Assembly: GCA_963804535.1 (NCBI GenBank)
Contig: CAWDQT010000011.1
Coordinates: 26,011-90,010, forward strand
Length of the DNA stretch: 64,000 bases
Direction of reading: 5' to 3'
From: an uncultured Acidobacteriota bacterium
GTDB lineage: Bacteria; Acidobacteriota; Terriglobia; Acidiferrales; UBA7541
Position numbers and translations under genes: made by a program
Shown: positions 14,990 through 33,856 of the stretch, piece after piece
Layout of the letters: every line of letters starts with the position of its first letter
Position numbering within the stretch: the first letter of the stretch is position 1
Notes under the pieces: generated by a model
What the model was told of the DNA's origin: nothing
Database searches by the model: none
The model's input: the letters and a program-made list of their open reading frames with translations, nothing else

Positions 14990-15382
14990 ATGAAACGCAC
15001 ATTGGCAATCTTGTTGGGAGTTGTGACATTACTGACGGCGGGCAGCAGTCAGCTCCTCGCTCATCATGCTTTTTACTCGGTCTACGACCGCGAAAAAACT
15101 GTAAAGATCGAAGGAACGCTGAAAGAGTTCATCTGGCGCAATCCGCATTCTTTCGTCAGGGTGGAAGCCCCGGACGAAAAGGGAGATGTGCAGAGCTGGG
15201 TGATCGAATGGGCGGCGCCTGCGCAATTGACCGAGAAGGGCGTATCCAGTGCCACGCTTCGCCCTGGCGATAAGATCGTCATTACGGGCCACCCCGGGCG
15301 CGTCGCTGAAAACCATAGGCTCCAACTGATGAAGGTGGAGCGGCCGTCGGACGGCTTTAAGTGGGAAGGTAACATTCAGTAA
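14990..15382 (+). CDS. small secreted protein, DUF6152-like, copy 1 (predicted mature N-terminus His-His)
   Basis: 130 aa. Signal peptide ends 'SQLLA|HHAFYSVYD', with conserved 'W.NPH' ('WRNPHSF'), 'WVIEW' and 'LRPGDKIVITG'. Confidence 0.8.
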   Translation: MKRTLAILLGVVTLLTAGSSQLLAHHAFYSVYDREKTVKIEGTLKEFIWRNPHSFVRVEAPDEKGDVQSWVIEWAAPAQLTEKGVSSATLRPGDKIVITGHPGRVAENHRLQLMKVERPSDGFKWEGNIQ

Positions 15383-15445
15383 GCGGTCATTATTGCCCGA
15401 AAGTTAGAGATAAGAAAATGAAGACACTACTGCCCGAAAGCGCTC

Positions 15446-16320
15446 ATGCGAATTGGCCAGACGTTCCTGTTTGCAGCAGCCTTTGCACTCGTGCTGGCGG
15501 CTCATCTCGGCGCCCAGGATACGGATGCTGCGCCGCAGGTGCTGGGGCTCAAGGCGCAGTGAATCTCCAAATTGGGGCGGCCCGAACCCCGCGGGCAGCT
15601 TCGCCGCAGGATTTGACCGGCTATTGGGAATCGATCGTCACCGAGTATTGGCGCTACCGTATGGTGATTCCGGACAAAAGCGACTACGTCATCGTTCCCC
15701 TCAATGCCGAGGCACGTAAGATCGCGGACGCCTGGGATCCGGCCAAGGATAAGGCCGAAGGCAATGAATGCAAGGGCTACGGTGCCGCCGCGATCATGCA
15801 GGTTCCGGGCCGGCTGCACATTTATTGGCAGGACGACAATACGCTGCGAATCGATGCCGATTCTGGGACCCAGACGCGTCTGTTGCATTTCGGCGGTTCC
15901 GCACCAGCGAATGCCGCGGCTGACTGGCAGGGATATTCGGTAGCCTTGTGGGAGGGATACGAACCCGATAATCAGCGAAACGGCGGTGGCGGGCCAATAC
16001 GGGATCCCAGAGATCTCGCCAAGGTTGTGCCCAGAGAGGTGGGCGGGGTGGTCCCCGGATATCTCAAGGTTCTCACCACCCATATGCGTCCTGGGTATCT
16101 GCGAAAGAATGGCGTTCCTTATGGTGCGAACGCGACAGTCGAAGAATCTTTCGATCGCTTTTCCGATCCCTATTCTCATGAGAATTGGCTGGTAGTTACG
16201 ACCGTCGTAACGGATCCCCAATACCTCATGGAGCCTTACGTCACCCATGCACACTTCAAGAAGATTGCAGATGGGTCTGGATGGGATCCGACGCCATGCC
16301 GGAGCGATGAGCCCCGCTGA
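15446..16320 (+). CDS. secreted lipocalin-like family protein (divergent member), N-terminal frameshift as sequenced
   Basis: Signal peptide 'MRIGQTFLFAAAFALVLAAHLGA' from ATG 15446 is out of frame with body ORF 15418..16320 (indel(s) about 15540-15605). The body has 'DLTGYWES', a Cys pair and 'DPQYLMEPY'. Confidence 0.7.
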
Positions 16321-16375
16321 TTATTCTTTGAGGGTGCCGTTTTAAGGTTCGGTTTTTCGCAGTGAGGATGAGCCA

Positions 16376-17266
16376 ATGAGATTTGCAAACATCAGCAGCA
16401 GGAAAGTGAAGCGCCTCTGGTTCCCTGTGCTGCTGCTCTTGGTCTTACCGAGCCGGTCGCTCTGGGCGCAGGTCGATCTTACTGGTGAGTGGTCCCCGAG
16501 GATCTATAACGACGGCAGAGACATCGGCGACTACACGGGAATTCCACTGAATGAAGCGGGCCGGCTGAGAGCCGAGAGTTTTCACCCGGAACAGTTTGAT
16601 CTTCCGGAAAATATCTGCAGACCACACGCGTTCGATATTGGATTGCGCGTTGCTCCGGCGCAGCTCTATATCTCCACCGAACTGGATAATGCTACACAAC
16701 TGGTCGTTGACTATCACTTCCACGCGTACTGGTCCGATTTCAGGATTTGGATGGATGGCCGTCCGCACCCGCCCGAGTACGCAGCTCACAAGTTCTCGGG
16801 ATTCTCGACCGGGCATTGGGAAGGCAGCACGCTGGTATTCACAACCGACCATCTTAAGGAAGGGTTCATTACCCGCACGGGAGCGCCACTCACGGAAAAA
16901 GCTACCGTGACCACTCGCGTCAATCGCTACGGCAATGTTTTGACGATGGTTTTTATTATCAATGATCCAGCTTACTTGAGTGAGCCCTACATTCGGGAAT
17001 CCAGTTGGTACTACGATCCGAAGCAGGTGATTCCGGCGTTCCCCTGCGAGCCGTCTCCAGAAGGAACACTAATACCGGCGGGCCAAGTGCCCAGTTTTAT
17101 GCCGGGAAAAAACGACATTCTTACCGACTTCGCTAAGGAGTACGGAATACCTCCCGAAGCTGCGCTAGGCGGCGCGGAAACGACGCATCCCGACTACATC
17201 AAGAAAATGAAAGACATGAAGAAGCTGCCGCGCACCAGCACGAAGCATTTCATACGGCAGGGTTAA
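16376..17266 (+). CDS. secreted lipocalin-like family protein (divergent member)
   Basis: 296 aa with a signal peptide, 'VDLTGEW', 'FSGFSTGHWEGSTLVFTTDHL' and 'INDPAYLSEPY'. Confidence 0.8.
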   Translation: MRFANISSRKVKRLWFPVLLLLVLPSRSLWAQVDLTGEWSPRIYNDGRDIGDYTGIPLNEAGRLRAESFHPEQFDLPENICRPHAFDIGLRVAPAQLYISTELDNATQLVVDYHFHAYWSDFRIWMDGRPHPPEYAAHKFSGFSTGHWEGSTLVFTTDHLKEGFITRTGAPLTEKATVTTRVNRYGNVLTMVFIINDPAYLSEPYIRESSWYYDPKQVIPAFPCEPSPEGTLIPAGQVPSFMPGKNDILTDFAKEYGIPPEAALGGAETTHPDYIKKMKDMKKLPRTSTKHFIRQG

Positions 17267-17271
17267 CTCGG

Positions 17272-18294
17272 TTATTTGCCTCCGCGGCTCTTGATTCCCT
17301 GCGCGACCATTTGCACTTTGAAAACGGCTCCGCCGCCCACCACGTAAAGCGTCTTCATATCAGGACCGGCGAACGTGAGATTTTGTGGCCGTCGAGATGT
17401 CGGAATTTTGCCTAAGAGCTGGCCCTGCGGGCTGAAGACTTGAACTGATCCGCCGGCTGCGGCGTAGATGCGGCCCTTGGTATCGACCGTGAAGCCGTCT
17501 CCTCCTCCGCCGACTTTTCCGCCAGTGATCGTAAGGTCTTCGTATTTGCCAAAATTGCGGCGATTGCGCAGCGTTCCGTCTTTTTGCACGTCAAAGGCGA
17601 TGATGTATTCACCGGCGGTATCGTTTACGTAGACAACTTTCTGATCGAGGCTCATCGTAACGCCGTTGGGAAATTCTATTCCGTCCGCGACCTTGATTAC
17701 TTTGCCGCCGCCCGGAGCAATGTAATAGACCGCGGGTGGCATCGGCGGATTCGGGACATTCGCCGGATCGGTGAAGTAGACGCCGCCTTTCTTATCGGCA
17801 AACAGATCGTTGGGCCGCACGAAAGGCTTGCCTTCAAACTTATCGGCAAGCACCGCTTCGCTGCCCTTGGGGTAGATTGCTTGCACTCCCATGTGTCCCG
17901 GCGCGGTGGTTGCTCCAATCAGGCGGCCCTTGGAATCCCAGGCGAGGCCATTCGGACCGTTGGCGATATTCGCGTCCACGAAGACGGACTCTTTGCCGTC
18001 TTTATCGACTTTCGCAACTCGGCCCAAGATCGTTTCGCAAAAGACCATGGTGCCATCGGGCAAAGCGATCGGACCTTCTGTGCCCTGCACTGCGACGCCG
18101 GGAGTTCCGTGGCCGGGAACGGACGCTATGACGACTTGGATCTTCGTTCCGCCGCTGATCACGCCAGGAATATCCTTGGCGACCGTATCGGTAGGCGGAG
18201 CCTCGGCAGGTCGTGGCTGACCTTGTTCCTGCGCGGATGACCTCCCGCAAATTGAAAGAGCCAAGAGTGCGAGAATTATCGCCTTCAGTTTCAT
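17272..18294 (-). CDS. SMP-30/gluconolactonase/LRE-like six-bladed beta-propeller, secreted
   Basis: Start ATG 18294 (RBS 'aagggag') and signal peptide 'MKLKAIILALLALSICG'. Blade motifs 'GPNGLAWDSKGRL', 'FPNGVTMS' and 'GDGFTVDTKGRIY'. Confidence 0.8.
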   Translation of the reverse strand: MKLKAIILALLALSICGRSSAQEQGQPRPAEAPPTDTVAKDIPGVISGGTKIQVVIASVPGHGTPGVAVQGTEGPIALPDGTMVFCETILGRVAKVDKDGKESVFVDANIANGPNGLAWDSKGRLIGATTAPGHMGVQAIYPKGSEAVLADKFEGKPFVRPNDLFADKKGGVYFTDPANVPNPPMPPAVYYIAPGGGKVIKVADGIEFPNGVTMSLDQKVVYVNDTAGEYIIAFDVQKDGTLRNRRNFGKYEDLTITGGKVGGGGDGFTVDTKGRIYAAAGGSVQVFSPQGQLLGKIPTSRRPQNLTFAGPDMKTLYVVGGGAVFKVQMVAQGIKSRGGK

Positions 18295-18479
18295 AAGCAC
18301 TCCCTTTGGACTGCTGACCACGCAAGGCTATACGCCAGCCGCGTTTGGAGTGTCAAGGCCAGTTCTTCGCGGCGCAAATTGGTGGGCGCACGAAAAGTGT
18401 GGCGGCACTGGATTCGTCTGGTGTATAAGCAGCGCCAAGAGCTGAGAATCGAATACTGAGCCATCAGCGGGAGAAGTCG

Positions 18480-19295
18480 ATGAAAAACACGAAATGCTTG
18501 CTTTCAGCGGGTTTTGTCACCGCGCTTGTGTTTGGCGGTTGGATCAACGCGCGGGCCCAGAGTGAGATCACACTCCTGGCACCCACGATTGCGCGCAAGC
18601 CAATCGATACGATCCTCGCGAATTTCCAGGCCAAAGGAAGCTACAAGGTAAAAGTGACTTACGTCAACGGAACGGCTACACGGCAAACGGTTGCGAAAGG
18701 CCAGCCTGGAGATGTGTCGCTCATCATCGGGCCCTTCCCCGGAGCGATTGCTTCGGGGACCATAATCCCGAGCAGCGCGACACCGATTGCGAACTTTGTG
18801 ATAGGCGTCGCCGTGCCGAAGGGCAAACCGAAGCCGGATGTCTCATCGCCCGCCGCGGTCAAAAAAGCGCTACTCGCAGCGAAATCCATTGGATATGAGG
18901 ACCCGGACTTCACGGTTGCAGGTCAATGCCCCTGGGAGGCGCTGAATAAGCTCGGCATCGCCGATCAGGTCGCCACCAAGAGTCAGGTCATGCTCGGCCC
19001 CGGCGGCCAAGGGATAGCCCCGAGCGCCACAGCTAACGCCACCACCACCTACCAACGGCTCGAAAGCGGCAATATTGATATTGGCTTGCTCATGCTGAGC
19101 GACGAGCTTCCCTACAAAGATAAGTTCGACGTTGCAGGCGTTTTGCCGCGGAAACTTTGCACGCCTACTCCACTGGTGGGCTTCATCTCCACTCATGCCA
19201 GCGATCCTGCAGCCGCAAAGGCGCTCCTGCAGTTTCTGACGGCGCCCGAAGCGCAGGCAATATTTAAGGAAGCGGGACTCGAGCCGCACAGTTAA
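18480..19295 (+). CDS. periplasmic substrate-binding protein (ModA/PBP2-like), orphan
   Basis: 271 aa with a signal peptide and a type-2 periplasmic-binding-fold look ('ITLLAP...', 'IDIGLLMLSD'). No permease or ATPase gene is adjacent. Confidence 0.6.
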   Translation: MKNTKCLLSAGFVTALVFGGWINARAQSEITLLAPTIARKPIDTILANFQAKGSYKVKVTYVNGTATRQTVAKGQPGDVSLIIGPFPGAIASGTIIPSSATPIANFVIGVAVPKGKPKPDVSSPAAVKKALLAAKSIGYEDPDFTVAGQCPWEALNKLGIADQVATKSQVMLGPGGQGIAPSATANATTTYQRLESGNIDIGLLMLSDELPYKDKFDVAGVLPRKLCTPTPLVGFISTHASDPAAAKALLQFLTAPEAQAIFKEAGLEPHS

Positions 19296-19323
19296 ACTTG
19301 GCTCGCGCACACCGGAAGGCCTG

Positions 19324-20370
19324 CTACTGCTTGACGTATTTCTTCAAATCCTTTGGGCCAACCTCCGCGCCATAGATTACGCCTTTGGTGTCCGCGGCAA
19401 CTCCCTCTGCTGCGCTGGTCCCGGTGTAGTTAGGATCAGCGTTCGGGTCAGGAATGAATGCTTTGAGGGAGCCATCTTTGGCGCTTCCGACTCTTATGCC
19501 TCTCTTCCAGGCGCCATGATCTTTGGCAACCGAGCCTGACTCCGAATCGGCCACGTAAATCACATCGTTCTTATCAATGAAGAGCCCGCTGGGCCGGCTG
19601 AACTGCTGCCACTGATCGATGAATTTTCCGTTCTGATCGAAGATCTGAATGCGATTGTTGCCGCGGTCCGCCACAAACAATCGCCCTTTGGAGTCAAAGG
19701 CAAGCGCGTGCGGGATGTTGAGTTCGCCGGGCGCCGATCCCTTTTTTCCCCACGTCATGATGAACTTGCCATCTTTCGAGAATTTCACGATGCGCGCGTT
19801 GCTCTCTCCGCCATGTCCATCCGCGATGAAAATGTCGCCGTTCGTCGCAATGGCAACGGCTGACGGCTTGTTGAATGTATCCTCGCTGTTGCCCGCTACT
19901 CCCGCCTTGCCGAGCGTCATCAAAACTTTTCCTGCCGGGCTGAACTTGAAAACCTGATGGCCCTTGCCATCTTTTCCGTCACCATCGGTAACCCATATGT
20001 TGCCGTCCCGGTCCGCGGTAATTCCGTGAGGAAAGACAAACATCTCCGCGCCGAAGCTGGTCAGAAGTTTGCCGGAAGGATCAAACTCCAAAATCGGCGC
20101 TAGTTTAGAGCCTGCGCAGCTATTGGCGCCGCATCGTTCGGCTACCCAGATATTGCCTTTACGGTCGACCGCTACTCCGGCAGTCGATCCCCACGGCCTG
20201 CCCTCGGGAAGCTTTGCCCAATTCTCGATTGTGCGATAAGGGTCGGGCAGAGAATTCGTGGGCTGAATGTCCGCCGCCGCGACATGTATCCTGCCCGCGG
20301 ATATCGTTCCCAGAATGGCGATGATCGCGCCGATTAGGATCAGGTTAAGTCCGCGCGCGCTTGTTTTCAC
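19324..20370 (-). CDS. NHL-repeat six-bladed beta-propeller (peptidyl-alpha-hydroxyglycine lyase-like), secreted
   Basis: 348 aa with 'HQVFKFSPAGKVLMTLG', 'ARIVKFSKDGKFIMTWG' and 'NNRIQIFDQNGKFIDQW'. Confidence 0.8.
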   Translation of the reverse strand: MKTSARGLNLILIGAIIAILGTISAGRIHVAAADIQPTNSLPDPYRTIENWAKLPEGRPWGSTAGVAVDRKGNIWVAERCGANSCAGSKLAPILEFDPSGKLLTSFGAEMFVFPHGITADRDGNIWVTDGDGKDGKGHQVFKFSPAGKVLMTLGKAGVAGNSEDTFNKPSAVAIATNGDIFIADGHGGESNARIVKFSKDGKFIMTWGKKGSAPGELNIPHALAFDSKGRLFVADRGNNRIQIFDQNGKFIDQWQQFSRPSGLFIDKNDVIYVADSESGSVAKDHGAWKRGIRVGSAKDGSLKAFIPDPNADPNYTGTSAAEGVAADTKGVIYGAEVGPKDLKKYVKQ

Positions 20371-20381
20371 AAACTCTCCTT

Positions 20382-21405
20382 TCAGCCGAGAAAATTGCCT
20401 AGTTCAGACAACAGCATTTCCGGTATCTCCTCGGCGATGAAATGGCTGCTCGGAAGCGGTTTACCGGAAGCGTTGGAAGCCCGCTCCTTCCACGTATCGA
20501 GGACGTTGTACTGCCGGTGCATCGCACCTCTTTCGGCCCACAGCGCCAAAACCGGGCAACTGATTTTGCGCTGCAGATCCGCATCATCATGCATCAGGTC
20601 GATGGAAGCGCCCGCGCGGTAGTCCTCGCAAGTCGCGTGAATCATCTCCGGAGTGCGGAAGGATCGGAGATATTCGGCAAAGGCTTCTTTGCTGATCGCG
20701 CCGGGAGGAAGACCATTGAAGCGCGATTTGAGCCAAAACTCGGCGCTATTGCCGATCATCGTTTCCGGGAGCGGCTCCGGTTGGATCAGGAAGAACCAGT
20801 GAAAATTAGATGTGGCGAGTTCCTTGGTGACGGTATGAAAGACCTTGTACGTGGGCACGATATCGAGGACTACGAGCTTTTGCACGCTGTCGGAGTGGTC
20901 GAGAGCCATGCCGATGCGCCACTCGCCCGCCGCGATCATGACCCACCACCAGAAATTTCTGGAATCCGAGGCTGTTCATCACCTCGACCTGGTCTTGAGC
21001 CATGGCCCGTTTTGAATAAGCAGCATGATCTCCGCCACCGGCAGGTTTGCTGCTGTCGCCATACCCGCGAAGATCGGCGGCCACTACGGTGAACTTTTTC
21101 GCAAGTTGTGGCGCAACCTTGCGCCACATGAGGTGCGTTTCCGGATAACCATGCATAAGCAAAAGCGGCGGGCCGCTGCCGGCAGTTACAAAGTTGATGG
21201 TAGCGCCTGAGGTTTGTTTCGTGAGCCGCTTGAAGCCCGGAAAAAAGTCCGCTGTGGCTGCGCTCTGATCCGTTTGTCCCGCCAGCCGATCTGTTTGTTC
21301 CGACAACCGCTCGGTGCGAGCGAGCGCATCCTGAGTCGAAACAATAGCGCCAAGTCCCAATGCAGCTGCTTTCTTGAGAATATCTCGACGGCTGTCATCG
21401 GCCAT
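20382..21405 (-). CDS. Tat-exported alpha/beta hydrolase (haloacetate dehalogenase/epoxide hydrolase-like), frameshifted as sequenced
   Basis: Tat motif '[15 protein letters not shown]' and '[14 protein letters not shown]'. The nucleophile elbow '[13 protein letters not shown]' joins '|[20 protein letters not shown]' if the extra C near 20911 is removed (ORFs 20806..21405 and 20382..20939). Confidence 0.8.
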
Positions 21406-21467
21406 AACTTCGACCCTCCGGAGGTCTCAGTAACTACACGTTCGTTTGCCGGGATGCAAGCCCGGGA

Positions 21468-23354: not shown

Positions 23355-23514
23355 TTTGGGGCCTCCAGATATGGAGACAGCCTGCACCCGGATGGAATAT
23401 GCGCATTGTACAGCACTCCTTGGCCGTCTGGTGGCAGTGAATCCTGTTCCATTCGCCGACGGCAATGCTGTACACTCTGCCTACTAGAACTCGCCTTGGA
23501 TGGAGGCAATCGCA

Positions 23515-23994
23515 ATGCGAAATCGGCATATTTTGCCAGTGGTTTTGACACTCGGCCTTTTGGTCGCGTCTGCTCCTCTATTCGCACATCACGCGAATGC
23601 CGTTTTTGATACGACGAAAACCGTTACCGTAAAAGGGGCAGTCACAGAATGGTTTTGGGCCAATCCGCATTGCCTTTTGAGGTTCGACGTAACAGACGAC
23701 TCTGGCCAGGTGGCGCATTGGGTCGGGGAGACTCAGGCTCCGATCAATATGATCGGAAACGGCTGGAGACGAGACTCGTTCAAGCCTGGGGATGAAATTA
23801 CCGTCAGTCTCCGGCCACTCCGGAACGGCAGGCCCGGCGGCAGCATTCAATCGGTCGTCCTTGCCGATGGTAAGACACTAAAGGCGGGAGCAGGAACCGA
23901 GTACGTCAAACCGGGCGGGCCGGCGCCCGACGGGGCTCAACCCGATGGAACTCGACCTGAGGGCACCAACCCCGAGGGGAACTCCAAGCCTTAA
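23515..23994 (+). CDS. small secreted protein, DUF6152-like, copy 2
   Basis: Signal peptide ends 'APLFA|HHANAVFD', with 'WANPHCL', 'WVGE' and 'FKPGDEITVS'. The C-terminal tail has four P(D/E)G pentapeptide repeats. Confidence 0.8.
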   Translation: MRNRHILPVVLTLGLLVASAPLFAHHANAVFDTTKTVTVKGAVTEWFWANPHCLLRFDVTDDSGQVAHWVGETQAPINMIGNGWRRDSFKPGDEITVSLRPLRNGRPGGSIQSVVLADGKTLKAGAGTEYVKPGGPAPDGAQPDGTRPEGTNPEGNSKP

Positions 23995-24074: not shown

Positions 24075-25031
24075 ATGCAAACGGAAAGGCATGTCGCGAT
24101 GTCAACCCGTTTAGGATCTCTCTCAATCACACGTGTGGCGGCATTCGTAATTGCGGCATTGGTCTTCGCGCCTCTCACCCATGCACAGACCGTGGTAATC
24201 CCTTTTACGCGGGAACCAGGAGCGGTCTATGACCCTGACGTTCCGAATGAGAAGCCGGGGCCTGCTCCACGCCGCGATTTGTCCGGCATTTGGGAGCCTG
24301 CCCGCTCGCTGGCGGACGACGTTGGGGCGGATGGGGCGAAAGCAATACCGGCGGATGGAAAGCCGGGCCACGAGCCGCCTTTTACCCCCGAAGGCCAGAA
24401 AGCATACATGGCCACCAAGCCGACCTTCGGCTACAGACAAGTCCCGCCTGTGCAAACAAACGATCCAATGCCTGGATGCGATCCCCAGGGGTTTCCGCGC
24501 GTCGCTCTGCATAACTTCCGAACGAGTTGGATCATCCAGAATCCGAGTAATGTGGTGATTCTGTATGAGTTCAACAAAAAGTGGCGGGTGATCTGGACCG
24601 ACGGGCGCGCGCTCCCCAAGAATGCCGAGGACCCGAGCTGGAGTTATATGCCGGATCTTTCGGAGTCAAGATGGTGGGGATACTCGGTGGGCAAATGGAT
24701 CGATGATTATACGTTTGAAGCCGAGTCGAACGGATTCAACGACAAGACCTGGCTCGATAACGCCGGCCGGCCCCACAGCACCGCTTTGCGCGTGATCGAA
24801 CGCTATCACCGCGTGGACGCAAAACACCTGGAAATGACCATCACAATCGATGACCCGAAGTATTACACGAAGCCCTGGGTCGCTTTGGACCGTTTGTCTT
24901 TGAGATTGCAATCACCCAGCTTCGATTTCTTTGAGCAGGAATGCTCGCCCTCTCAGACCAAGGAATATAACGAATTCTATGGCGAGCCCGCCTCCGAGAA
25001 TTTAGGCAAACCTCCCGACAAAGCCAAGTAG
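24075..25031 (+). CDS. secreted lipocalin-like family protein (short form)
   Basis: 318 aa with 'RRDLSGIWEP', 'FTPEGQ', 'PGCDPQGFP', 'WGYSVGKW', 'GFNDKTWLDNAGRPHSTALRVIERY' and 'DDPKYYTKPW'. Confidence 0.85.
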   Translation: MQTERHVAMSTRLGSLSITRVAAFVIAALVFAPLTHAQTVVIPFTREPGAVYDPDVPNEKPGPAPRRDLSGIWEPARSLADDVGADGAKAIPADGKPGHEPPFTPEGQKAYMATKPTFGYRQVPPVQTNDPMPGCDPQGFPRVALHNFRTSWIIQNPSNVVILYEFNKKWRVIWTDGRALPKNAEDPSWSYMPDLSESRWWGYSVGKWIDDYTFEAESNGFNDKTWLDNAGRPHSTALRVIERYHRVDAKHLEMTITIDDPKYYTKPWVALDRLSLRLQSPSFDFFEQECSPSQTKEYNEFYGEPASENLGKPPDKAK

Positions 25032-25143
25032 GTCTTGGACCCGCTCCCTGTGGATCAGACTGGTCTTAGCGGGTGAGCTTCTCTTGACCTCGACGACGGG
25101 CCGCAGTAGCATCCAGCGAAGCAGCATCCATAAGGTCGATTCA

Positions 25144-25950
25144 ATGCCACGCAAGAATGCGCATGCGTTCGGTTCTTTTCGTGAGCGGACTATCGGATTG
25201 ACCGCGCTCTTGATTGCGCTCGCGTCCGCGGTCTCCATGCGTGCGCAAGCGTCTGCCCCGGCCCAAACCGCAACAACAGAGCCTGCACTGCGCCCGCGCG
25301 ACCTTACAGGTCTATGGTTCGGCGGAGTCGGAGGAGGCTTGCGCGTGAAGGGGACGGTGGCTCCGCTGACGCCGGAGGGCCAGACCAGATTCAATGCCAA
25401 TACCGCGGAACTGAAGAGCGACCGTACCATCAGCGCCGATCCCACCTTTCGCTGCGAGCCGCCCGGCTTGCCGCATATCTACGGGATCGGCGGCTATTCG
25501 ATCGAATTCATGCAGACTCCGGCGCGGATCGTGATCTTCTACGAGTCGATACACACATTTCGCACCATCTGGATGGACGGCCGGAAGCCGCCGCAAGATG
25601 CCGATCCAATGTGGATGGGATTTTCCGTGGGACACTGGGACGGAAACGATCTGGTCGTGGATACAACCGGGTTCAACGACAAAACCTGGCTGAATGGAGC
25701 GGGATATCCACACAGTGAAGCGCTTCACATAATCGAGCGCTTCCATCGCGCCGACGTGAAGCACATGCAACTCGATATCACCATCGACGATCCAAAGTCG
25801 TACACGCAGCCTTGGCATATGGGAATCAATTTCACGCTTCAGCCGACATGGGAGTTTGGGGAATCTTTCTGTATTCCCACGAACCAGGAGAATTTCAAAT
25901 CGGAAATCATTGAGCAAAACGACAAGGACAAACCGGCCCCAAAGAAATAG
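25144..25950 (+). CDS. secreted lipocalin-like family protein (short form)
   Basis: 'RDLTGLW', 'LTPEGQ', 'FRCEPPGLP', 'MGFSVGHWDGNDLVVDTTGFNDKTWLNGAGYPHSEALHIIERF' and 'DDPKSYTQPW'. ATG 25144 is preferred (signal peptide). Confidence 0.85.
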   Translation: MPRKNAHAFGSFRERTIGLTALLIALASAVSMRAQASAPAQTATTEPALRPRDLTGLWFGGVGGGLRVKGTVAPLTPEGQTRFNANTAELKSDRTISADPTFRCEPPGLPHIYGIGGYSIEFMQTPARIVIFYESIHTFRTIWMDGRKPPQDADPMWMGFSVGHWDGNDLVVDTTGFNDKTWLNGAGYPHSEALHIIERFHRADVKHMQLDITIDDPKSYTQPWHMGINFTLQPTWEFGESFCIPTNQENFKSEIIEQNDKDKPAPKK

Positions 25951-25991
25951 TCGCTGGTAATTACTTGTTGCGCGCGAGGAGGTTCCGCGAA

Positions 25992-26420
25992 ATGCACTTC
26001 ACAACGAAGACCAGAGTTCTAGCCTGTTGCGCCGTAGCGGCGCTGGCCGCTATTGGCCCCAGGGCCGTCTTCGCCCATCACGGGTCGGCGGCATACGATA
26101 TGTCCAAATCGCTCACGCTCGATGGCACCGTAACGAGCCTGGACTGGAACAATCCGCATTGCCTGCTTCATTTCGACGCCAAGGATGAGAAAGGCGAAGT
26201 GCAGCACTGGACGATCGAACTTTACAATCCCCTGTGGATGACGCGCGCCGGATGGACACGAACCAGCCTGAAAGCCGGCGACCCGATCAACATCACCTTC
26301 CACGGAACCAAGAGCGGCGCGCCGAATGGCTACATTCGTGACGGCGACGGGAAACTGACCTCGAACGGTAAGGAACTCGCGTTTCATCAGGCCGGAGACG
26401 AGCGAACCACGGAACGCTAG
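25992..26420 (+). CDS. small secreted protein, DUF6152-like, copy 3
   Basis: RBS 'gaggagg'. Signal peptide ends 'PRAVFA|HHGSAAYD', with 'WNNPHCL', 'WTIEL' and 'LKAGDPINITF'. Confidence 0.8.
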   Translation: MHFTTKTRVLACCAVAALAAIGPRAVFAHHGSAAYDMSKSLTLDGTVTSLDWNNPHCLLHFDAKDEKGEVQHWTIELYNPLWMTRAGWTRTSLKAGDPINITFHGTKSGAPNGYIRDGDGKLTSNGKELAFHQAGDERTTER

Positions 26421-26487
26421 CGCCGTCCGCCTCCGTCGCGCTACGGATGGCGGCTAACGATTGAGAAACCTTCGAGGCGAGCGCGTC

Positions 26488-27609: not shown

Positions 27610-27627
27610 GTGGAAAGGAAGGTTGCC

Positions 27628-28701
27628 ATGCGTCTAACGCTTCTCTCTTTCGTTGCGATAATCGGCTCGAGTCTGCTTTGCACGCCCGCTTTCAGCCAGG
27701 AGAAAGGTGGGGACGACCGCACCGGTCCCTACGACGCCGTCCAAGGCTGGCCCCACCCATTGCCAGACAAGGGGTACATTTGGGGATCGACCGGTGGCAT
27801 CTTCGCCGAAACGCCCAACAGAATCTTCATTGCTAACCGCGGTGAATTGAAACTGCCGGATAAACTGCCTCGCAATTTCAATGGTTTCTCGGGCTCCCTT
27901 GGGCTGGCGGCCACAGGCCTGGTGCCCGTGTTCAAAAATTGCATCGCCATTGTCGATGCCGACGGCACGCTGATCGAGGCATGGACCCAATGGGATCATC
28001 TTTTCGAGGATGGCCGCGGGCCGCACTCCGTCCTCATCAGTCCTTACGATCCTGAACACAACGTTTGGGTCGTTGACGACATCCATCATCAGGTCTTCAA
28101 ATTCACCAATGATGGCAAGAAGCTGCTCATGACTCTTGGCGTGAGGGACGAACCCGGCAATGACGACAAGCATTTCAAGCGTCCTACCGACATCGCCTGG
28201 CTGCCTGACGGCACATTCTTCATCAGCGATGGTTACGGCAATACGCGCGTCGTAAAATTCGACAAGAACGGAAAGTTTCTGCTGACTTGGGGAACACCGG
28301 GCACGGGGAATAGCCAGTTCAACACGCCGCATTCGATCACCGTCGACCGCAATCGCCGCGTGTACGTCTCCGATCGGGCCAACAACCGCGTTCAGGTCTT
28401 CGATGAGAATGGCAAGTACCTCGACCAGTTTCCCAATATCGCGCAGCCTTACCACATTCGCATTAGCAACGATGGTTACCTGTGGGCCTTTTCGGGTCCG
28501 CTCGATAAATTCTTGAAATACGATCTGCAGGGCCATCTGTTGTATGCCTGGGGCACACACGGCACCGAGCCGGGCCTGTTCTGGGCCGTTCACCAATTTT
28601 CGTCAGACAGCGAGGGCAATCTCTATACCGCCGAAGTTTTCGGAGGGCGGCCACAGAAGTTCCGCCCGCGAGCCCGGAGCCGACCCGTCGCATTTTTTTA
28701 A
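27628..28701 (+). CDS. NHL-repeat six-bladed beta-propeller (PAL-like), secreted, paralogue of 19324..20370
   Basis: 'HQVFKFTNDGKKLLMTLG', 'TRVVKFDKNGKFLLTWG' and 'NNRVQVFDENGKYLDQF'. The stop lies in a T7 run, so the true end might be 28735. Confidence 0.8.
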   Translation: MRLTLLSFVAIIGSSLLCTPAFSQEKGGDDRTGPYDAVQGWPHPLPDKGYIWGSTGGIFAETPNRIFIANRGELKLPDKLPRNFNGFSGSLGLAATGLVPVFKNCIAIVDADGTLIEAWTQWDHLFEDGRGPHSVLISPYDPEHNVWVVDDIHHQVFKFTNDGKKLLMTLGVRDEPGNDDKHFKRPTDIAWLPDGTFFISDGYGNTRVVKFDKNGKFLLTWGTPGTGNSQFNTPHSITVDRNRRVYVSDRANNRVQVFDENGKYLDQFPNIAQPYHIRISNDGYLWAFSGPLDKFLKYDLQGHLLYAWGTHGTEPGLFWAVHQFSSDSEGNLYTAEVFGGRPQKFRPRARSRPVAFF

Positions 28702-28770
28702 GCAAGTGCCGCTCATGCCGAAGAAATCGAGTTGAGCTGCCGGTCGATCGTTGAAGAAGGAGAGAACCAT

Positions 28771-29292
28771 ATGGCTAAGCGAAATCTGCCGTTGCTGCTC
28801 ATCTTTACTCTAGCTCTGCCGGTAATCTCACGCGCCCAGGCAATGCCAAACTTCTCCGGAAACTGGAAACTCGCCCAGATCGAGCCACCCGTCGATCCCC
28901 GAAACGGCCGCCCGCCGTCCGCCGGTGGTGGCCTGGGCGGAGGTGGAGACGCGGACAATGCCTATGGGGCGAGCATCCGCGAAATTTTTGCTCAAGCGCC
29001 GCAGACGATCATGATCACGCAGACAGCGAACCAAATCGCCGTACAAATTGGATCGGAAAAAGAGTCTTATACGCTGGATGACAAGCAAACGGTGACTCCG
29101 GCCGGCGATCCCAACGCCTTGAAGACTTGGGCGCACTGGGACGGAACGAAGCTGCACCTGCACTTCAAAAAAGGAATGAACTGGGGCAGGGACATCCTCA
29201 GCTTGAGCGATGGAAAACTCGTCGTGCTGCGCGATGTTGAATCGGGTGGCGGATCGACGACTTTTAGCATTACGTACTCCAAGACCGAGTGA
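28771..29292 (+). CDS. small secreted lipocalin-like protein (mini version of the expanded family)
   Basis: 173 aa with signal peptide 'LALPVISRAQA'. 'PNFSGNWKL' and 'AHWDGTKLHLHF' echo 'PNFSGIWEA' and 'GHWDGDTLVVDV' of the larger paralogues. Confidence 0.7.
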   Translation: MAKRNLPLLLIFTLALPVISRAQAMPNFSGNWKLAQIEPPVDPRNGRPPSAGGGLGGGGDADNAYGASIREIFAQAPQTIMITQTANQIAVQIGSEKESYTLDDKQTVTPAGDPNALKTWAHWDGTKLHLHFKKGMNWGRDILSLSDGKLVVLRDVESGGGSTTFSITYSKTE

Positions 29293-29352
29293 ATAATTCC
29301 TCGCTCAATATTTCAGAAATCCGCAGAGCGTGTTTCGAGCTAGGTCTCGTAG

Positions 29353-30201
29353 ATGGATAAATCGACCCTTTTATTGGCTGCGATCATACTGGCTGTGTTC
29401 GGGGCTTCTGTCGCAGCCGGTCATCCCCACTGGGGCACGTTCACCGGCATCGCCATCATTCTGCTGGCCGCGGGCCTTGGGGCTGGAACGCTACCGCTTC
29501 GCTCACAGGATTTTGTCGAAGAGCGAACAAGCCCCACCCAGAGAATCTCGAACGGCCTGATTACCTTGAGTTCCGCCGCCATCGTTGCTATCTACGCTGC
29601 GGGCTATCACCGAACGAGTCCTGCGGCGCATCGGTTTGATTCGCAGATACCGCAGCAGAGAACGTCCGCTACGATTGCGATCGCGACACCTCCACCCGCT
29701 GCAAACCCAGGCTCCTCCGCGGCTCCGCCGGTTTCGTCTTCTGCGGCTCCTGCGAGCAAGAAAAATACCAAGAGGCCTTCGACTCCGTCTCGCAAAGCGG
29801 CGCCTAGTAGCGCCAGCGATTCAGCAGGGTCATCCTCCGCACCATCGCCGGCGTCAGCGACTAATCCGCCTATCGAAGCGGCCGCGCCGCCTGCGGGCGC
29901 AGCAAAGAGCGCGTACAAAGACGGCGTCTACTTGGGATGGGGCAGTTGCCGTCACGGTGATATCGAAGCATCCGTTACGATTCAGGACGGCAAGATCGCT
30001 CTCGTCGCGATTTCGCAATGCCTGACGCGCTACTCCTGCGGTTGGATCGCGCCAAAAATTCCGGGCGCCGGATTGCCCGACTTACCCTCACAGGTGGTCG
30101 AAAGGCAGGGCCCGAAGGTCGATTACGTCTCAGGAGCCACTGAGAGCAGCTATGCATTCGCTGATGCAGTCGTCGCAGCACTATCCAAAGCCACAGAGTA
30201 A
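29353..30201 (+). CDS. membrane-anchored FMN-binding domain protein (RnfG/NqrC-like) with flavinylation motif
   Basis: Three N-terminal TM helices, a P/S/A-rich linker, then an FMN_bind-like domain ending 'KVDYVSGATESSYAF'. The S-G-A-T motif is at nt 30130-30141. Confidence 0.8.
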   Translation: MDKSTLLLAAIILAVFGASVAAGHPHWGTFTGIAIILLAAGLGAGTLPLRSQDFVEERTSPTQRISNGLITLSSAAIVAIYAAGYHRTSPAAHRFDSQIPQQRTSATIAIATPPPAANPGSSAAPPVSSSAAPASKKNTKRPSTPSRKAAPSSASDSAGSSSAPSPASATNPPIEAAAPPAGAAKSAYKDGVYLGWGSCRHGDIEASVTIQDGKIALVAISQCLTRYSCGWIAPKIPGAGLPDLPSQVVERQGPKVDYVSGATESSYAFADAVVAALSKATE

Positions 30202-31136
30202 CGAGGTCGTCCGCACCGTCGCCCTGATGGGTACCTTTGTGACGATCCACGTCGTGGGCCATGTAGTGGGAGACATGGCCGGTCACAAAGGGGAGACGGA
30301 GAGGACTGAGCGCGAGCGAGCGGTCGACCGCGCGCTTGATTGGTTTTACAAAATTGAGGAATGTTGCACGCGATTCGAGTCCAGCAGCGAAGTGATGCGG
30401 CTCGCGACCCAGGTGGGCGTGCCCGTTCCAGTCAGCACGATCCTTTTCGAAGCGGTGCAATTCGCGTTGGCCGTAGCGGAAGCAACTGAAGGCGCGTTCG
30501 ATCCGACGGTCGGCTACGCCATGGAATCGCTCGGTTTCAATCGCGAATACCGCACCGGTCAAACGATCCGAACTCCTCTCGATTCCAATTTCCCTGTCAG
30601 CTACCGGGATGTTCGCCTCGACGCGGAAGGCCAGACGATCACCTTGCATCGTCCGCTGATTCTTGATCTTGGCGCCGTCGCGAAGGGGTTGGCGGTTGAT
30701 CTCGCCGCACGCGAGCTTCAATCGTTCAAAAATTTTGCGATCAACGCGGGTGGCGATCTCTATCTCGGAGGATGCAATCCCAGTGGCGAGCCATGGTCCG
30801 ATCGGAATCCGCCATCCGCGAAACGATGGGGAATTGATTGATTCGATCCGAGTCTCAAACCGCGCCGTCTGCACCTCAGGCGACTACGAAAAACGGGCGA
30901 ACGACGAGCAAGGCCATCATATTCTCGATCCGCGCACAGGATCGTCAGCCAACGCCGTGGCCAGCGTGACGGTTATCGCACTTACAGCGATGCTGGCCGA
31001 TGCGCTCGCAACGGCCGCTTTCGTTCTGGGTCCGTCTGATGGGATTCAACTATTCCATCGTTTGGGCGTGGATGGGCTGATCATTTCCCCGACCCTGGAA
31101 CTATATGCAACTCGAGGGTTCCGTGAGTACCACTAG
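30152..31136 (+). CDS. apbE: FAD:protein FMN transferase (ApbE), frameshifted as sequenced
   Basis: 'VALMGTFVTI', 'AFDPTVG' and 'LDLGAVAKGLAVD' in ORF 30152..30841. 'IGIRHPR...AVCTSGDYE...HILDPRTG' lies in ORF 30663..31136. They join at 'GEPWS|IGIRHP' if the extra C near 30799 is removed. Confidence 0.82.
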
Positions 31137-31944
31137 CTCTGCGATTTGGCGATTCTTTCAGACGCCCAAGGGTCTTCTCATCATCGTGCTGGTGATTCTG
31201 GTTGCGGTAGCCGCCCCGCACGAGGGGATCGCATTAGTAGCGCCCGGTCTCGCAACTGCGGTTTTGGTCGCTAGTGCGATCGACGTGCTGATTCTCCGAA
31301 AAATTCGAGGCGCCTGGGAATTTCCCAGTGGCGCAGTTCTCACGGGTCTGATTGTTGCAATGATATTGACTCCACAGGAGCCTTGGTACGTCACCGCTTG
31401 CACCTCGGCCATAGCGATTGCGAGTAAGTACGTCGCCCGGACTCGCTCGGCCAACATCTTTAATCCGGCCGCACTGGCTCTGGTTGCTACCTTTTACATT
31501 TTCAATACGGGACAGAGTTGGTGGGGCGCCTTGCCTGAAATTTCACCCTACGCTCTGATCGTGCTTGTGGCGACCGGCGCGTTCATCGCGGATCGCGTCA
31601 ACAAGATTCCCTTGGTTCTCGTTTTCCTGTTTACCTACTTTGGGCTATTTACGCTCACGAGCTTCGCCGGCGATCCGGGAAAGGTCGCCGAAATGTTTCG
31701 CGCGCCCGATCTCCACGCCGTGCTCTTCTTTGCGTTCTTCATCTTGACCGATCCGCCAACTTCGCCCGTGAGGTATCCCGATCAGATTGTGTGCGGAGTG
31801 CTTGTCGCCTTGGCCAGTTACGCGACCTTTGAGTGGGTGGGTGCGGCCCATTATCTTCTTGCGGGCGTTCTCGTCGGCAACATCTGGGAAGCTTGGCACC
31901 GCTCGCAATTTTTGCGCCGGCGCGTGCCGTCGCCGGCCACATAG
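31105..31944 (+). CDS. RnfD/NqrB-like polytopic membrane protein (short, without its own SGAT site)
   Basis: 279 aa with 'SGAVLTGLIVAMILTP', 'NIFNPAALALV' and 'FFILTDPPTSP', which resemble conserved RnfD/NqrB blocks. Confidence 0.65.
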   Translation: MQLEGSVSTTSSAIWRFFQTPKGLLIIVLVILVAVAAPHEGIALVAPGLATAVLVASAIDVLILRKIRGAWEFPSGAVLTGLIVAMILTPQEPWYVTACTSAIAIASKYVARTRSANIFNPAALALVATFYIFNTGQSWWGALPEISPYALIVLVATGAFIADRVNKIPLVLVFLFTYFGLFTLTSFAGDPGKVAEMFRAPDLHAVLFFAFFILTDPPTSPVRYPDQIVCGVLVALASYATFEWVGAAHYLLAGVLVGNIWEAWHRSQFLRRRVPSPAT

Positions 31945-31978
31945 CGGCAAAGCACGAAGCAGGGAAGCAAAGCGTTCC

Positions 31979-32455
31979 CTACGAAAATCCGATCCAGCGC
32001 CCGCCGATTCCTACACCCGCCCACAGCAAGACCGAAACCACTGCCACTACTTTGCTCCAAACGGGGCTCACTCGAGTCTCGTCGGTCATGGTCACTTTGC
32101 GTTGGATTGTAAAAGTGAAGACGATCGCCAGAAACAGACACGACATCTTGAACCAAAAGGCGTCATGGTAATAACACTTGATCGCTTCGGAGAGGAAGAG
32201 CAGGCCACCCGTGATGATCATTAATACGAGGCTGCCGACGAGCCAGGGCTGCGCGTTGCGAGTGAGCTCTGCGGCGGACTGCCGCTTCAATCCAAGACCT
32301 AAGAGACGCATGTCCACAACCAACACCGCTCCCCCGATCACTCCCAGGCCAAGGAGGTGAATTGCCTCGATCACCGGAAATAACCAGGATGACTTTCGGA
32401 TCGTTTCGCCGATTCCCGAAGCTTCGCACCACTGAAAGAAGGCCAGCAGCGACAT
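31979..32455 (-). CDS. 4-TM membrane protein, function unknown (DUF6644/CopD-like?)
   Basis: ATG 32455 overlaps the upstream stop (TAATG). 'WLFPVIEAIHLLGLGVIGGAVLVVDMRLLG' is paralogous to the upstream gene. Confidence 0.7.
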   Translation of the reverse strand: MSLLAFFQWCEASGIGETIRKSSWLFPVIEAIHLLGLGVIGGAVLVVDMRLLGLGLKRQSAAELTRNAQPWLVGSLVLMIITGGLLFLSEAIKCYYHDAFWFKMSCLFLAIVFTFTIQRKVTMTDETRVSPVWSKVVAVVSVLLWAGVGIGGRWIGFS

Positions 32456-33120
32456 TAGTGTTCCGCCTGGGTTGGCACGCAACTGGTGAGGAAATTAACG
32501 ATCGCCGGTTGCGGCTGCCTATCGCAGTCGAACCAGTTATACGCGATCATTCTTCCCGAAAGAACGATGCAGACCCATAGCACCAGCGAAAGCGCGCCGG
32601 CAACTCTGGCTGCCTTGGGCGTTACATTATCCACATCCCACGTTGTCACCCGGCGATAAACGCCCGAATGAAAGATCCACACGTTCAGGCCCGCCAGCAA
32701 CAGCATGATCATTTTGGCGCGGAAGAAAATATTCTGATAGGAGCGCAGCGGTATGGCCGAAAACAGGAGCGTTCCACTGATGACCATGACGACGAATCCA
32801 ACTGCGGTCCAAGGCAGCAGGCGCCGGGCAACTTCGGATACGGGCACGCTCTTCATCGTCCAGCCGAGGAGGCGGAAATCGAACATCACGGCCAAGCCGA
32901 AGAATAGGCACAGCGCCCATACATGGACCGATTCGATCAGGTCGTAAGCATAGCGGGATTCGTGCAGGCCGGTGCTCCACGATGAATCGCCCATCCGTTG
33001 GAAGAAATCGAGAAGGGTCCCTCCGATCCCGCCGCCTCCTTCATTACTTTCGTTGGCAGCCGACTGCAATGATGCTGCGTCGAATGGGCCGCTCGCGAAA
33101 AATTGGCCAGGCGCGCCCAT
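32455..33120 (-). CDS. 4-TM membrane protein, paralogue of 31979..32455, function unknown
   Basis: 'YAYDLIESVHVWALCLFFGLAVMFDFRLLG'. It may extend to ATG 33272 (signal-like 'MKRVLIGLFCILTLALC') if an indel lies near 33120. Confidence 0.65.
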   Translation of the reverse strand: MGAPGQFFASGPFDAASLQSAANESNEGGGGIGGTLLDFFQRMGDSSWSTGLHESRYAYDLIESVHVWALCLFFGLAVMFDFRLLGWTMKSVPVSEVARRLLPWTAVGFVVMVISGTLLFSAIPLRSYQNIFFRAKMIMLLLAGLNVWIFHSGVYRRVTTWDVDNVTPKAARVAGALSLVLWVCIVLSGRMIAYNWFDCDRQPQPAIVNFLTSCVPTQAEH

Positions 33121-33403
33121 TTTTCGGAGCCAGGGTCCGGCGGAATCAAGTGGATGTGAACTGCCGCTTCACTCGACCTCTGTACTCTGTAGGCGGCTTG
33201 AGTAGGCGAGGTCACCAAATAGCAGAGAGCCAACGTCAAAATACAGAAGAGCCCGATCAGAACGCGCTTCATTTGGAAATTCGTTCTTATCCGATTTCAA
33301 GCATTGGGGATCCACTCATGCGCAATCCCGAGCGTAAACAAGGAAAAGGCTGCGCGGATCGGGTACGATCCGCGCGCCAATGCAAACGCGGGCGCCGCGT
33401 CCG

Positions 33404-33856
33404 TTATTTCTTGCTCTCCGGCGACAACTCGTATGGCGCGCCGGTTCCGGACGAGCCGAGGAACAGTTTTCGCCCATCAGGGAACGTAAGATCCCTGCCG
33501 TTGGCTCGGTGCGACCCGTCTTTCGCCTGGTATCCATCGACCACCACTTCGGTGCCGGGCAGCAGGGATTCCTTGGTGAACCCGCGCCGGAAAAGGACGT
33601 TCGGCGTGCCCGCTTCGACGGCCCAGTTCTCAACCGTGCCATCGGGCTTCTTCACGTCGACGTGCATCCAGGTGTGGGGATTTACCCATTCCATTTTCGT
33701 GATGGTCCCCTTGAAACTCACCGGTTTATTCGCGTCGAACTCCGCCGCAAACGCGTGGTGCGCCGAGACTGACGCCGCACCTCCCAGGATTGCGAAACCC
33801 ACGACGGCGACTACCGTTGCAATTTTCGTTCGCATCGACTTCAGCCTCCTCCGCAT
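33404..33856 (-). CDS. small secreted protein, DUF6152-like, copy 4
   Basis: Signal peptide ends 'AASVSA|HHAFAAEFD', with 'WVNPHTW', 'WAVEA' and 'LLPGTEVVVDG'. Confidence 0.8.
   Translation of the reverse strand: MRRRLKSMRTKIATVVAVVGFAILGGAASVSAHHAFAAEFDANKPVSFKGTITKMEWVNPHTWMHVDVKKPDGTVENWAVEAGTPNVLFRRGFTKESLLPGTEVVVDGYQAKDGSHRANGRDLTFPDGRKLFLGSSGTGAPYELSPESKK

Follow-up and report, generated by a model that had tools for sequence, protein, structure and literature searches.

DUF6152 in an Acidobacteriota gene block: a candidate N-terminal-histidine metal-binding family on an OB-fold, with FABP-like barrels and a membrane pair as genomic partners

The DUF6152 genes and their predicted products

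The window analysed here is a stretch of 64,000 nucleotides from an uncultured Acidobacteriota bacterium (GenBank assembly GCA_963804535.1, contig CAWDQT010000011.1, positions 26,011 to 90,010), with a G+C content of 58.7%. It contains a block of about 26 kb (13.9-39.9 kb) that is rich in genes for exported proteins and is set between housekeeping genes, with lipA, lpxC and purLQFM on one side and ileS, rluD and an addA-type helicase gene on the other. The block carries four genes (D1 to D4) for small exported proteins of the family DUF6152, together with nine genes (X1 to X9) of a family without a Pfam model, called here family X, and a pair of DUF6644 membrane-protein genes. These genes are grouped in three clusters. 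The first has the order D1-X1-X2. The second has the order D2-X3-X4-D3 and is followed by genes for an Amidohydro_2 protein and an NHL propeller. The third, on the minus strand, has the order X7-X6-X5-D4-DUF6644-DUF6644, with X8 divergent from it and X9 beyond X8.

The four DUF6152 open reading frames (ORFs) had been pointed out in a reading of the DNA without database searches (the sequence-only reading); all four are real and their translations agree with those quoted there. D1 (14990-15382, plus strand) encodes 130 residues, with a leader of residues 1-24 (...SSQLLA), His25-His26 encoded at 15062-15067 and an Asn-Pro-His (NPH) motif at 15140-15148. D2 (23515-23994, plus strand) encodes 159 residues, with a leader of residues 1-24 (...APLFA), then His25-His26, the motif NPHC at residues 50-53 (23662-23673) and a C-terminal tail rich in Pro and Gly. 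D3 (25992-26420, plus strand) encodes 142 residues, with a leader of residues 1-28 (...RAVFA), then His29-His30, and NPHC at residues 54-57 (26151-26162). The fourth ORF, D4 (33404-33856), exists as described but belongs to the minus strand, its plus-strand translation being nonsense. As drawn, D4 encodes 150 residues, with a leader ending in ...ASVSA, His33-His34 (codons 33755-33760) and NPH at 33674-33682. The internal ATG at 33835 (MRTKIATVV...) is probably the real start: the family alignment begins there and the nearest homologues have 142-145 residues, against 143 for a protein starting at this ATG.

All four proteins match Pfam PF19649 (DUF6152), the family that the sequence-only reading had named, with scores of 84.6-113 bits against a gathering threshold of 27 bits and E values from 5e-24 to 7e-33 (5.2e-24 for D1, 3e-27 for D2, 2.8e-27 for D3 and 7.3e-33 for D4). 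The matches extend from model positions 3-7 to 94-96 of the 98-position model. A tblastn search of the window detects exactly four DUF6152 copies. Their mutual identity is 30-40%, and the four genes are therefore old paralogues and not recent duplicates. The junctions between leader and His-His (LLA/HHAF, LFA/HHAN, VFA/HHGS and VSA/HHAF) and the shared core pattern had been quoted correctly. Columns invariant in all four proteins include A-H-H, D, K, G, W.NPH, G.V..W..E, P, G and G, and these shared columns, judged from the aligned sequences, far exceed chance expectation. D2 and D3 carry a single Cys right after the His of NPH, a feature shared by 32 of 154 family representatives; this Cys could be an extra ligand in that subfamily.

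DUF6152 is a large family, with at least 8,000 matches scored in a 90%-clustered database and 16,780 clusters (50% identity) at E <= 1e-3. An orthologue of D1 with 98% identity is present in an uncultured Acidobacteriota metagenome-assembled genome (locus L001). The earlier statement that no function has been assigned to the family is borne out, since DUF6152 is the sole database match and a known unrelated family was not found. It is the only significant Pfam match of the four proteins, which match neither DUF4198 (Pfam entry presumably PF10670) nor DUF6702. NCBIfam has no model matching DUF6152, PDB sequence and profile searches gave nothing significant, and literature searches found no paper on DUF6152 or PF19649.

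Leader statistics were obtained from 150 sequences, namely the 146 best motif-bearing representatives and the four window proteins. The leader has a median length of 24 residues (about 22-27) and His-His follows immediately. The n-region contains K/R in 98% of the sequences, a hydrophobic core is present in 99%, and charged residues are almost absent from the last 14 positions. Position -1 is occupied by Ala in 139 sequences and by Gly in 8, and position -3 by Leu (48), Ala (46) or Val (39). The signal peptide ending in Ala directly before His-His, as had been read in the four window proteins, is thus a Sec/signal peptidase I (SPase I) layout that extends across the whole set. Since the leader has a canonical SPase I site (-3/-1 rule) and the alignment agrees with it, the mature chain should begin with His1-His2 after the predicted cleavage, giving a putatively Sec-exported protein of approximately 100-125 residues. 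Export by the twin-arginine translocation pathway was considered and rejected, a twin-arginine-like motif being found in only 7 of the 150 leaders. DUF6152 as a lipoprotein was rejected as well, as a lipobox was seen neither in the leaders of the four window proteins nor in the other sequences inspected.

Residues are numbered from here on as in mature D4. In the conservation sample, formed by the best-scoring ~150 of the 16,780 clusters, His1 and His2 are each present in 151 of 152 relatives and Asp9 in 145 of 152. The NPH motif is conserved to a similar degree (Asn27 in 152, Pro28 in 154 and His29 in 153 of 154 sequences), and Trp46 and Glu49 are found in 151 and 146 of 153, respectively. 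Neither Met nor Cys is conserved in this sample. In an alignment of 110 sequences the only strictly invariant columns are H1, H2, N27, P28 and H29. As the sample had been ranked by a profile that holds the HH and NPH residues, 18 copies met incidentally in locus flanks were also inspected: 17 have a leader ending in A directly before HH, followed by NPH, and one has HH followed by SPH. The proposed invariance of His1, His2 and NPH across homologues was upheld both in the large counts and in these incidental copies.

Tandem DUF6152-DUF6152 proteins are known from eight representatives. The first domain has the leader, HH and NPH in all eight. The complete set of HH and NPH is found in none of the internal second domains: four of them keep HH with the His of NPH lost (NPR, KPR and others) and the other four have lost HH. 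To judge from these eight proteins, the full motif is under weaker selection in a domain that does not stand at the N-terminus, as expected if a free N-terminus belongs to the functional site.

The fold of DUF6152 was predicted with AlphaFold2, using mature D4 and 110 aligned sequences as input. The model (predicted local distance difference test, pLDDT, 83.4; predicted template modelling score, pTM, 0.75; core above 90) has the topology b1-b2-b3-helix-b4-b5, a five-stranded barrel of the oligonucleotide/oligosaccharide-binding (OB) type. The top 50 Foldseek matches listed from the PDB are all OB-folds, with a best E value of 3e-3 and a template modelling (TM) score of about 0.5; they include SSB, PriB, Rim1 and the anticodon-binding domain of LysRS, and no LPMO (lytic polysaccharide monooxygenase), CopC, cupredoxin or TIMP is among them. 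In the model, Asp9 opens strand 1, NPH lies in the loop between strands 1 and 2, and strand 3 ends at Glu49; in an OB barrel this loop and the end of strand 3 are at the same end.

Partner families and conserved modules

The partner genes of DUF6152 had gone unnoticed in the sequence-only reading. The nine family X genes of the window lie within 15418-39866 and encode proteins of 288-436 residues. At least 7,993 homologues exist, all of them annotated as 'hypothetical protein' and none with a Pfam domain; Pfam, NCBIfam and PDB sequence and profile searches with family X gave no match, even at E = 10. The AlphaFold2 model of mature X4 (pLDDT 93.5, pTM 0.88) is a closed antiparallel beta-barrel with a helical insert, for which the best Foldseek matches are CRBP, FABP and CRABP (E 3.7e-4, TM score 0.4 on the query and 0.63 on the target), which is borderline. 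An N-terminal DLxGxW motif is nearly invariant (G20 is invariant and W22 nearly so) and corresponds to the calycin G-x-W motif. Family X is predicted to consist of secreted FABP-like calycin barrels, the Foldseek support for this being borderline. A Cys pair (C68 and C207) is conserved, as are the polar residues Q88, E98, R104, S125, E162-R163, D180 and E204; the alignment has no conserved His or Met and no invariant free Cys. With FABP, CRBP and CRABP the family shares the beta-barrel with helical insert, the G-x-W motif and conserved Arg and Glu residues. However, family X proteins are secreted, about twice as long (230-400 residues), carry the Cys pair, occur in pairs or tandem fusions and have no sequence similarity to those proteins.

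X1 (15446-16320, plus strand) lies directly 3' of D1 and contains a frameshift, so that the signal peptide MRIGQTFLFAAAFALVLAAHLGAQD (ATG at 15446) and the mature domain are read in different frames. Comparison with the near-identical loci L001 and L002 reveals a 1-nt deletion in a G-run near 15538; this is either an assembly indel or the mark of a pseudogene. X2 (16376-17266, plus strand, 296 residues) is the second barrel of the D1 module. X3 (24075-25031, plus strand, 318 residues) is directly 3' of D2, and X4 (25084-25950, plus strand, 288 residues, mature part from 25252) is located between X3 and D3. On the minus strand, X5 (33925-34911, 328 residues) immediately precedes D4 within one operon-like cluster and is itself preceded by two long forms, X6 (34936-36246, 436 residues as drawn) and X7 (36197-37402, 401 residues), the latter opening the cluster. 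X6 and X7 are tandem duplicates with 79-86% identity; the orthologous modules in L083-L087 have one such gene, so that the duplication is recent. X8 (37554-38561, plus strand, 335 residues) is divergent from X7 and 65% identical to X5, and X9 (38652-39866, minus strand, 404 residues) is another long form.

Several family X proteins of other genomes are fusions. Tandem fusions of an X2-type with an X1-type barrel (P0426 and P0427) and other tandem family X fusions suggest that the barrels work as pairs. In P0419 and P0420, family X is fused behind a monoheme cytochrome c (CQLCH), and at these loci a DUF6152 gene lies two genes downstream and two pyrroloquinoline quinone (PQQ) dehydrogenase genes are nearby.

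The DUF6644 genes follow D4 on the minus strand. The first (32455-33120) is directly downstream of D4 and the second lies at 31979-32482; they match Pfam PF20349 with 48.6 and 99.1 bits, respectively (E 1.2e-12 and 3.7e-28; gathering threshold 27 bits). DUF6644 proteins have four transmembrane helices and a His, invariant in 37 of 37 sequences, at the start of the first helix (...IESVH... in the first and ...IEAIH... in the second window protein); according to the positive-inside rule this His would face the periplasm. The first copy has in some lineages an extra N-terminal membrane domain with His-rich motifs, which gives a sub-threshold match to DUF2231, and the DUF6644 core gives a sub-threshold match to DUF2214. 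PDB searches found no solved relative of DUF6644, literature searches on DUF6644 found nothing, and those on DUF2214 and DUF2231 gave nothing informative.

The genomic neighbourhood of DUF6152 was studied in 80 loci from reference genomes, nearly all of them from Acidobacteriota (Bryobacterales, Terriglobia, Vicinamibacterales and 'gp2'), which were collected by a search biased to D1-type genes. Of the 96 DUF6152 genes in these loci, 60 are followed directly by a family X gene with the same orientation, and 83 have one anywhere in the fetched locus. D1-type DUF6152 is paired with X1/X2-type barrels in 54 of 55 cases. A reciprocal check that took family X members as its starting point covered two loci, L090 and L089, and each has a DUF6152 gene; in L090 it is the next gene downstream, and in L089 it follows one gene further on. 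The D4-type module, in which family X genes are followed by DUF6152 and two DUF6644 genes, is kept in L083-L088 despite differing outer flanks, and the divergent X8-type arrangement of the window is also found in L083, L085 and L087.

DUF6644 is near DUF6152 in 14 of the 80 loci, and in 10 of these a same-strand pair is immediately downstream. Four loci (L017, L028, L029 and L070) have DUF6644 and DUF6152 without any family X gene. None of the other neighbour families is present in more than 17 of the 80 loci; among the ten recurrent clusters that were annotated, the informative ones are cytochrome c (14/80), PQQ dehydrogenases (10/80) and TonB-type outer-membrane barrels (10/80). In L081 and L082, a PQQ dehydrogenase and a cytochrome bc complex stand beside the D4 orthologue. 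DUF6152 is therefore not a stand-alone gene, being the common element of conserved modules with family X and/or the DUF6644 pair.

A protein with both a DUF6152 and a family X domain was not found among the 510 proteins fetched. One candidate fusion (L025, 7899-9203) consists of adjacent in-frame DUF6152 and family X genes without a stop between them, read as one ORF; it was rejected, the second half retaining its own signal peptide.

A candidate N-terminal-histidine metal centre and its rivals

We propose, with chances that we put at about even, that DUF6152 is an N-terminal-His metal centre carried by an OB-fold and the metal-bearing partner of family X and DUF6644. His1, His2, Asp9, His29 and Glu49 look like a classic set of metal ligands, and they would form a mononuclear site of N/O donors that needs the free N-terminus. 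It would take one of two forms: a chelate of the histidine-brace type, in which His29 completes the donors supplied by the terminal NH2 and the imidazole of His1, or else a chelate formed by NH2-His-His. On chemical grounds the best guess is Cu(II), with Ni(II), Zn(II) and Fe(II) as further candidates; a soft, CusF-like Cu(I) site would be unlikely because neither Met nor Cys is conserved. An N-terminal His exposed by leader cleavage chelates metals whatever the fold (PMC12537917; PMC10952591). One family of this kind, DUF4198, prefers Ni (PMC12537917), and copper is therefore only one candidate metal for DUF6152. The synteny suggests that DUF6152 acts in periplasmic modules with one to four family X barrels and/or the DUF6644 pair. 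In these modules it would most likely capture a metal ion and then hand it over to the cognate barrel or membrane pair, or hold it at the interface with them, in a relation analogous to that of CopC with CopD or of YcnI with YcnJ.

The nearest known systems are the histidine-brace proteins (LPMOs AA9-AA17, CopC/PcoC, PmoF1, YcnI and X325/Bim1). Their leader is cut directly before a His, as predicted for DUF6152, and residue 1 provides the NH2 and imidazole chelate; further invariant His and Asp/Glu residues, such as those present in DUF6152, can complete the site. A brace calls for a second conserved His that is placed to give T-shaped N3 coordination together with NH2 and the N-delta of His1; the invariant His2 and His29 would be the candidates for this place. 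CopC and YcnI are small bacterial members with the membrane partners CopD and YcnJ. However, brace proteins have an Ig-like or cupredoxin-like beta-sandwich and DUF6152 a predicted OB-fold with adjacent invariant His residues at positions 1 and 2; there is no sequence or structural similarity between them, no copper-transport genes are near DUF6152, and its copper binding is only putative. The interpretation given in the sequence-only reading, a periplasmic metal centre (perhaps of Cu) by comparison with LPMOs and CopC-type proteins, is partly supported. The comparison stands for the N-terminal-His logic only: according to AlphaFold2 and Foldseek the fold is an OB-fold and not a beta-sandwich (Ig-like, FnIII-like or cupredoxin-like), and copper-handling genes are absent from the annotated neighbourhood.

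The 'signal strapping' families described in 2025 include the Ni-binding protein DUF4198, DUF6702 and the anglerases Ang-1 and Ang-2 on HupE/UreJ permeases (PMC12537917). Like DUF6152, they are exported bacterial proteins with a leader followed by His; their folds vary, their metal is not always copper and some are coupled to permeases. They have beta-sandwich or other folds, whereas DUF6152 has a membrane partner encoded by a separate gene (DUF6644) and a calycin partner. The text and supplements of PMC12537917 do not mention DUF6152, and literature searches combining 'histidine brace' and 'OB-fold' found nothing. Neither an N-terminal-His site on an OB-fold nor the module of three families is described in the literature searched, and DUF6152 is uncharacterised although catalogued in Pfam.

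A number of observations weigh against an N-terminal-His metal centre. In the model, residues 1-10 of D4 have a mean pLDDT of 75, below that of the core, and the OB topology would set the start of strand 1 and the loop between strands 1 and 2 at opposite ends of the barrel, so that the first 7 residues must fold back to reach His29. The conservation counts come from a sample ranked by a profile that contains the same residues, remote members lying outside it. HH may have some value without a free amine, given that four of the eight internal domains keep it. Nothing in the genomic context points to copper. No copper-homeostasis or copper-transport genes (copD, copA/B, ycnJ/K, pmo) were detected by Pfam among the window neighbours or in the ten annotated recurrent clusters, and bacterial brace proteins usually sit in copper-gene clusters (PMC10952591). 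In the conserved promoter of the D4 operon, neither a box for Fur, Zur, CueR or CsoR nor any other known regulator box could be recognised, and an Rfam riboswitch search of the window gave no match. A metallochaperone would also be unusual in having four copies within 19 kb, each matched to a partner subtype of its own.

The main rival, which we consider unlikely, makes the N-terminal-His site (three His and a carboxylate, as in a histidine brace or in the 3-His-1-Glu site of cupins) the catalytic site of an oxidoreductase or oxygenase in the periplasm. In this view the FABP-like barrels would bind and present a hydrophobic or aromatic small-molecule substrate, and electrons would come from cytochrome c, from PQQ dehydrogenases or from the DUF6644 pair, which would function as a b-type cytochrome of the membrane to which each subunit contributes one His. 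Four DUF6152 and nine family X genes within 26 kb, in subtype-specific combinations, resemble catabolic enzyme sets more than homeostasis, and the periplasmic hydrolases in the neighbourhood (of the Amidohydro_2, SGL, MBL, alpha/beta-hydrolase and tannase kinds) point in the same direction. So do the fusions of family X with cytochrome c in P0419 and P0420, with DUF6152 and PQQ dehydrogenases near them, the presence of PQQ dehydrogenases and cytochrome c in 10 and 14 of the 80 loci and of a cytochrome bc complex in L081/L082, and the His-rich, DUF2231-like extension (a sub-threshold match) on the first DUF6644 of some lineages. However, these redox links are minority associations, as no neighbour other than family X exceeds 17 of the 80 loci, and a small OB-fold (about 100 residues) with no evident pocket would rather suggest a binder or chaperone. 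According to a review of the histidine brace, redox activity has not been convincingly demonstrated for CopC, YcnI or X325, save some weak ascorbate oxidation by CopC mutants (PMC10952591).

The strict co-diversification of DUF6152 and family X subtypes implies specific protein-protein recognition, and it is compatible with a second rival, in our view improbable, in which no metal is bound. The exposed His-His N-terminus would then be a plug or ligand inserted into a partner, with the NPH loop at the interface. The N-terminal domain of TIMPs is an OB-fold whose residue 1 is functionally essential and is inserted into the active site of the target, where its free alpha-amine engages the metal site of the partner. 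It offers a precedent, by analogy, for an OB-fold that depends on residue 1, and DUF6152 might insert its residue 1 in a similar way; in another variant, its His residues would be axial ligands to a tetrapyrrole or another cofactor in the calycin barrel. Family X itself lacks an invariant His, Met or free Cys, and the 10 N-terminal residues of DUF6152 are modelled less confidently than the core, both of which fit this rival. However, His, His, Asp, His and Glu would be a metal-ligand set of the classic type, modules of DUF6152 and DUF6644 exist without family X, and there is no sign of a cofactor in family X. TIMPs are eukaryotic protease inhibitors whose residue 1 is Cys, with no sign of homology to DUF6152, and are absent from the top 50 Foldseek matches listed.

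A third rival, which we regard as very improbable, takes DUF6152 as a generic OB-fold binder of oligosaccharide, nucleic acid or peptidoglycan (of the BOF/YgiW or nuclease type), with the His residues serving pH-dependent binding or acid-base catalysis. The nearest structural matches, SSB, PriB and the anticodon-binding OB-folds of tRNA synthetases, would agree with such a role, as would the export of the protein. However, these matches are weak (best E 3e-3, TM score ~0.5) and reflect the fold only, and a generic binder leaves unexplained the invariance of positions +1 and +2, the loss of the motif in internal domains and the calycin and DUF6644 partners.

A fourth rival would make DUF6152 a classical Cu(I)/Ag(I) chaperone that supplies an efflux pump in the periplasm, like CusF and SilF. 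These share with DUF6152 the small size, cellular location and fold class (both are OB-folds according to PMC10656224), but the rival is largely refuted and was rejected. The metal site of CusF and SilF is an internal His-Met-Met set with a Trp cap and not the N-terminus; DUF6152 lacks this His-Met-Met-Trp site and any conserved Met or Cys, its putative ligands being hard N/O donors. PDB searches give no sequence relation to any solved structure including CusF and SilF, and no cus or sil genes or other efflux context are adjacent among the annotated neighbours.

The proposal of an N-terminal-His metal centre is sharp and cheaply testable on a very abundant family of soil bacteria; it is an experimental lead and not a result. 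N-terminal-His sites (LPMOs, CopC, the CuB site of pMMO) have altered the understanding of biomass oxidation and copper trafficking, and new N-terminal-His families are still published as discoveries (Nat Commun 2025, PMC12537917). DUF6152 is concentrated in Acidobacteriota, which rank among the most abundant soil bacteria and also among the least understood. Its predicted His-His N-terminus is exceptionally clean, and the OB-fold is not known so far to bear such a site. Both partner families are equally uncharacterised, one of them lacking a Pfam model although it has thousands of members. Should metal binding be true, DUF6152 would extend the histidine-brace repertoire by a new scaffold and offer a three-component periplasmic system for study; if it is false, the conserved module remains an unexplained and abundant feature of soil genomes. 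A bolder idea, which we hold only tentatively and think doubtful, is that DUF6152, the FABP-like barrels and DUF6644 form an unrecognised and very widespread periplasmic metallo-system centred on Acidobacteriota. Its new N-terminal His-His centre, of the brace type and with Cu or Ni, would catalyse redox or oxygenase reactions of hydrophobic or aromatic small molecules that the barrels present, and the electrons would be supplied by the membrane pair, by cytochrome c or by PQQ dehydrogenases. If true, this would be a new class of soil-carbon-processing enzyme.

Other genes of the block and the X7/X8 intergenic region

Between 13919 and 28701, the DUF6152 and family X genes are found amid many exported hydrolase-type genes. 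These encode an MBL-fold protein, two SGL/NHL propellers, a 665-residue PD40 propeller protein, the Amidohydro_2 protein and a further NHL propeller. Related loci have additional genes for PQQ dehydrogenases, tannase and TonB-type outer-membrane barrels. An alpha/beta-hydrolase on the minus strand (20382-21405) is apparently split into two overlapping ORFs of different frames: the ORF 20806-21405 matches the N-terminal third of Abhydrolase_1 only, and the ORF 20382-20939 has no Pfam match. This split is probably another indel.

The interval between the D3 and D4 clusters (28732-31944) contains a 186-residue ORF without Pfam match, an FMN_bind protein (29353-30201) and an RnfD/NqrB-like membrane protein (31105-31944). 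These may belong to a flavin-based system for electron transfer outside the cytoplasm.

The divergent intergenic region between X7 and X8 (37403-37553) is strongly conserved in orthologous loci. It contains likely promoter elements (-35 TGGACA, -10 CATAAT), and the -10 element is overlapped by the near-palindrome ATGGCGCCAT, which in the window is interrupted by one extra base. A small hairpin in the 5' untranslated region has the form GCGGTT-GCGA-AACCGC, and its window version is GCGGTT-CG-AACCGC.

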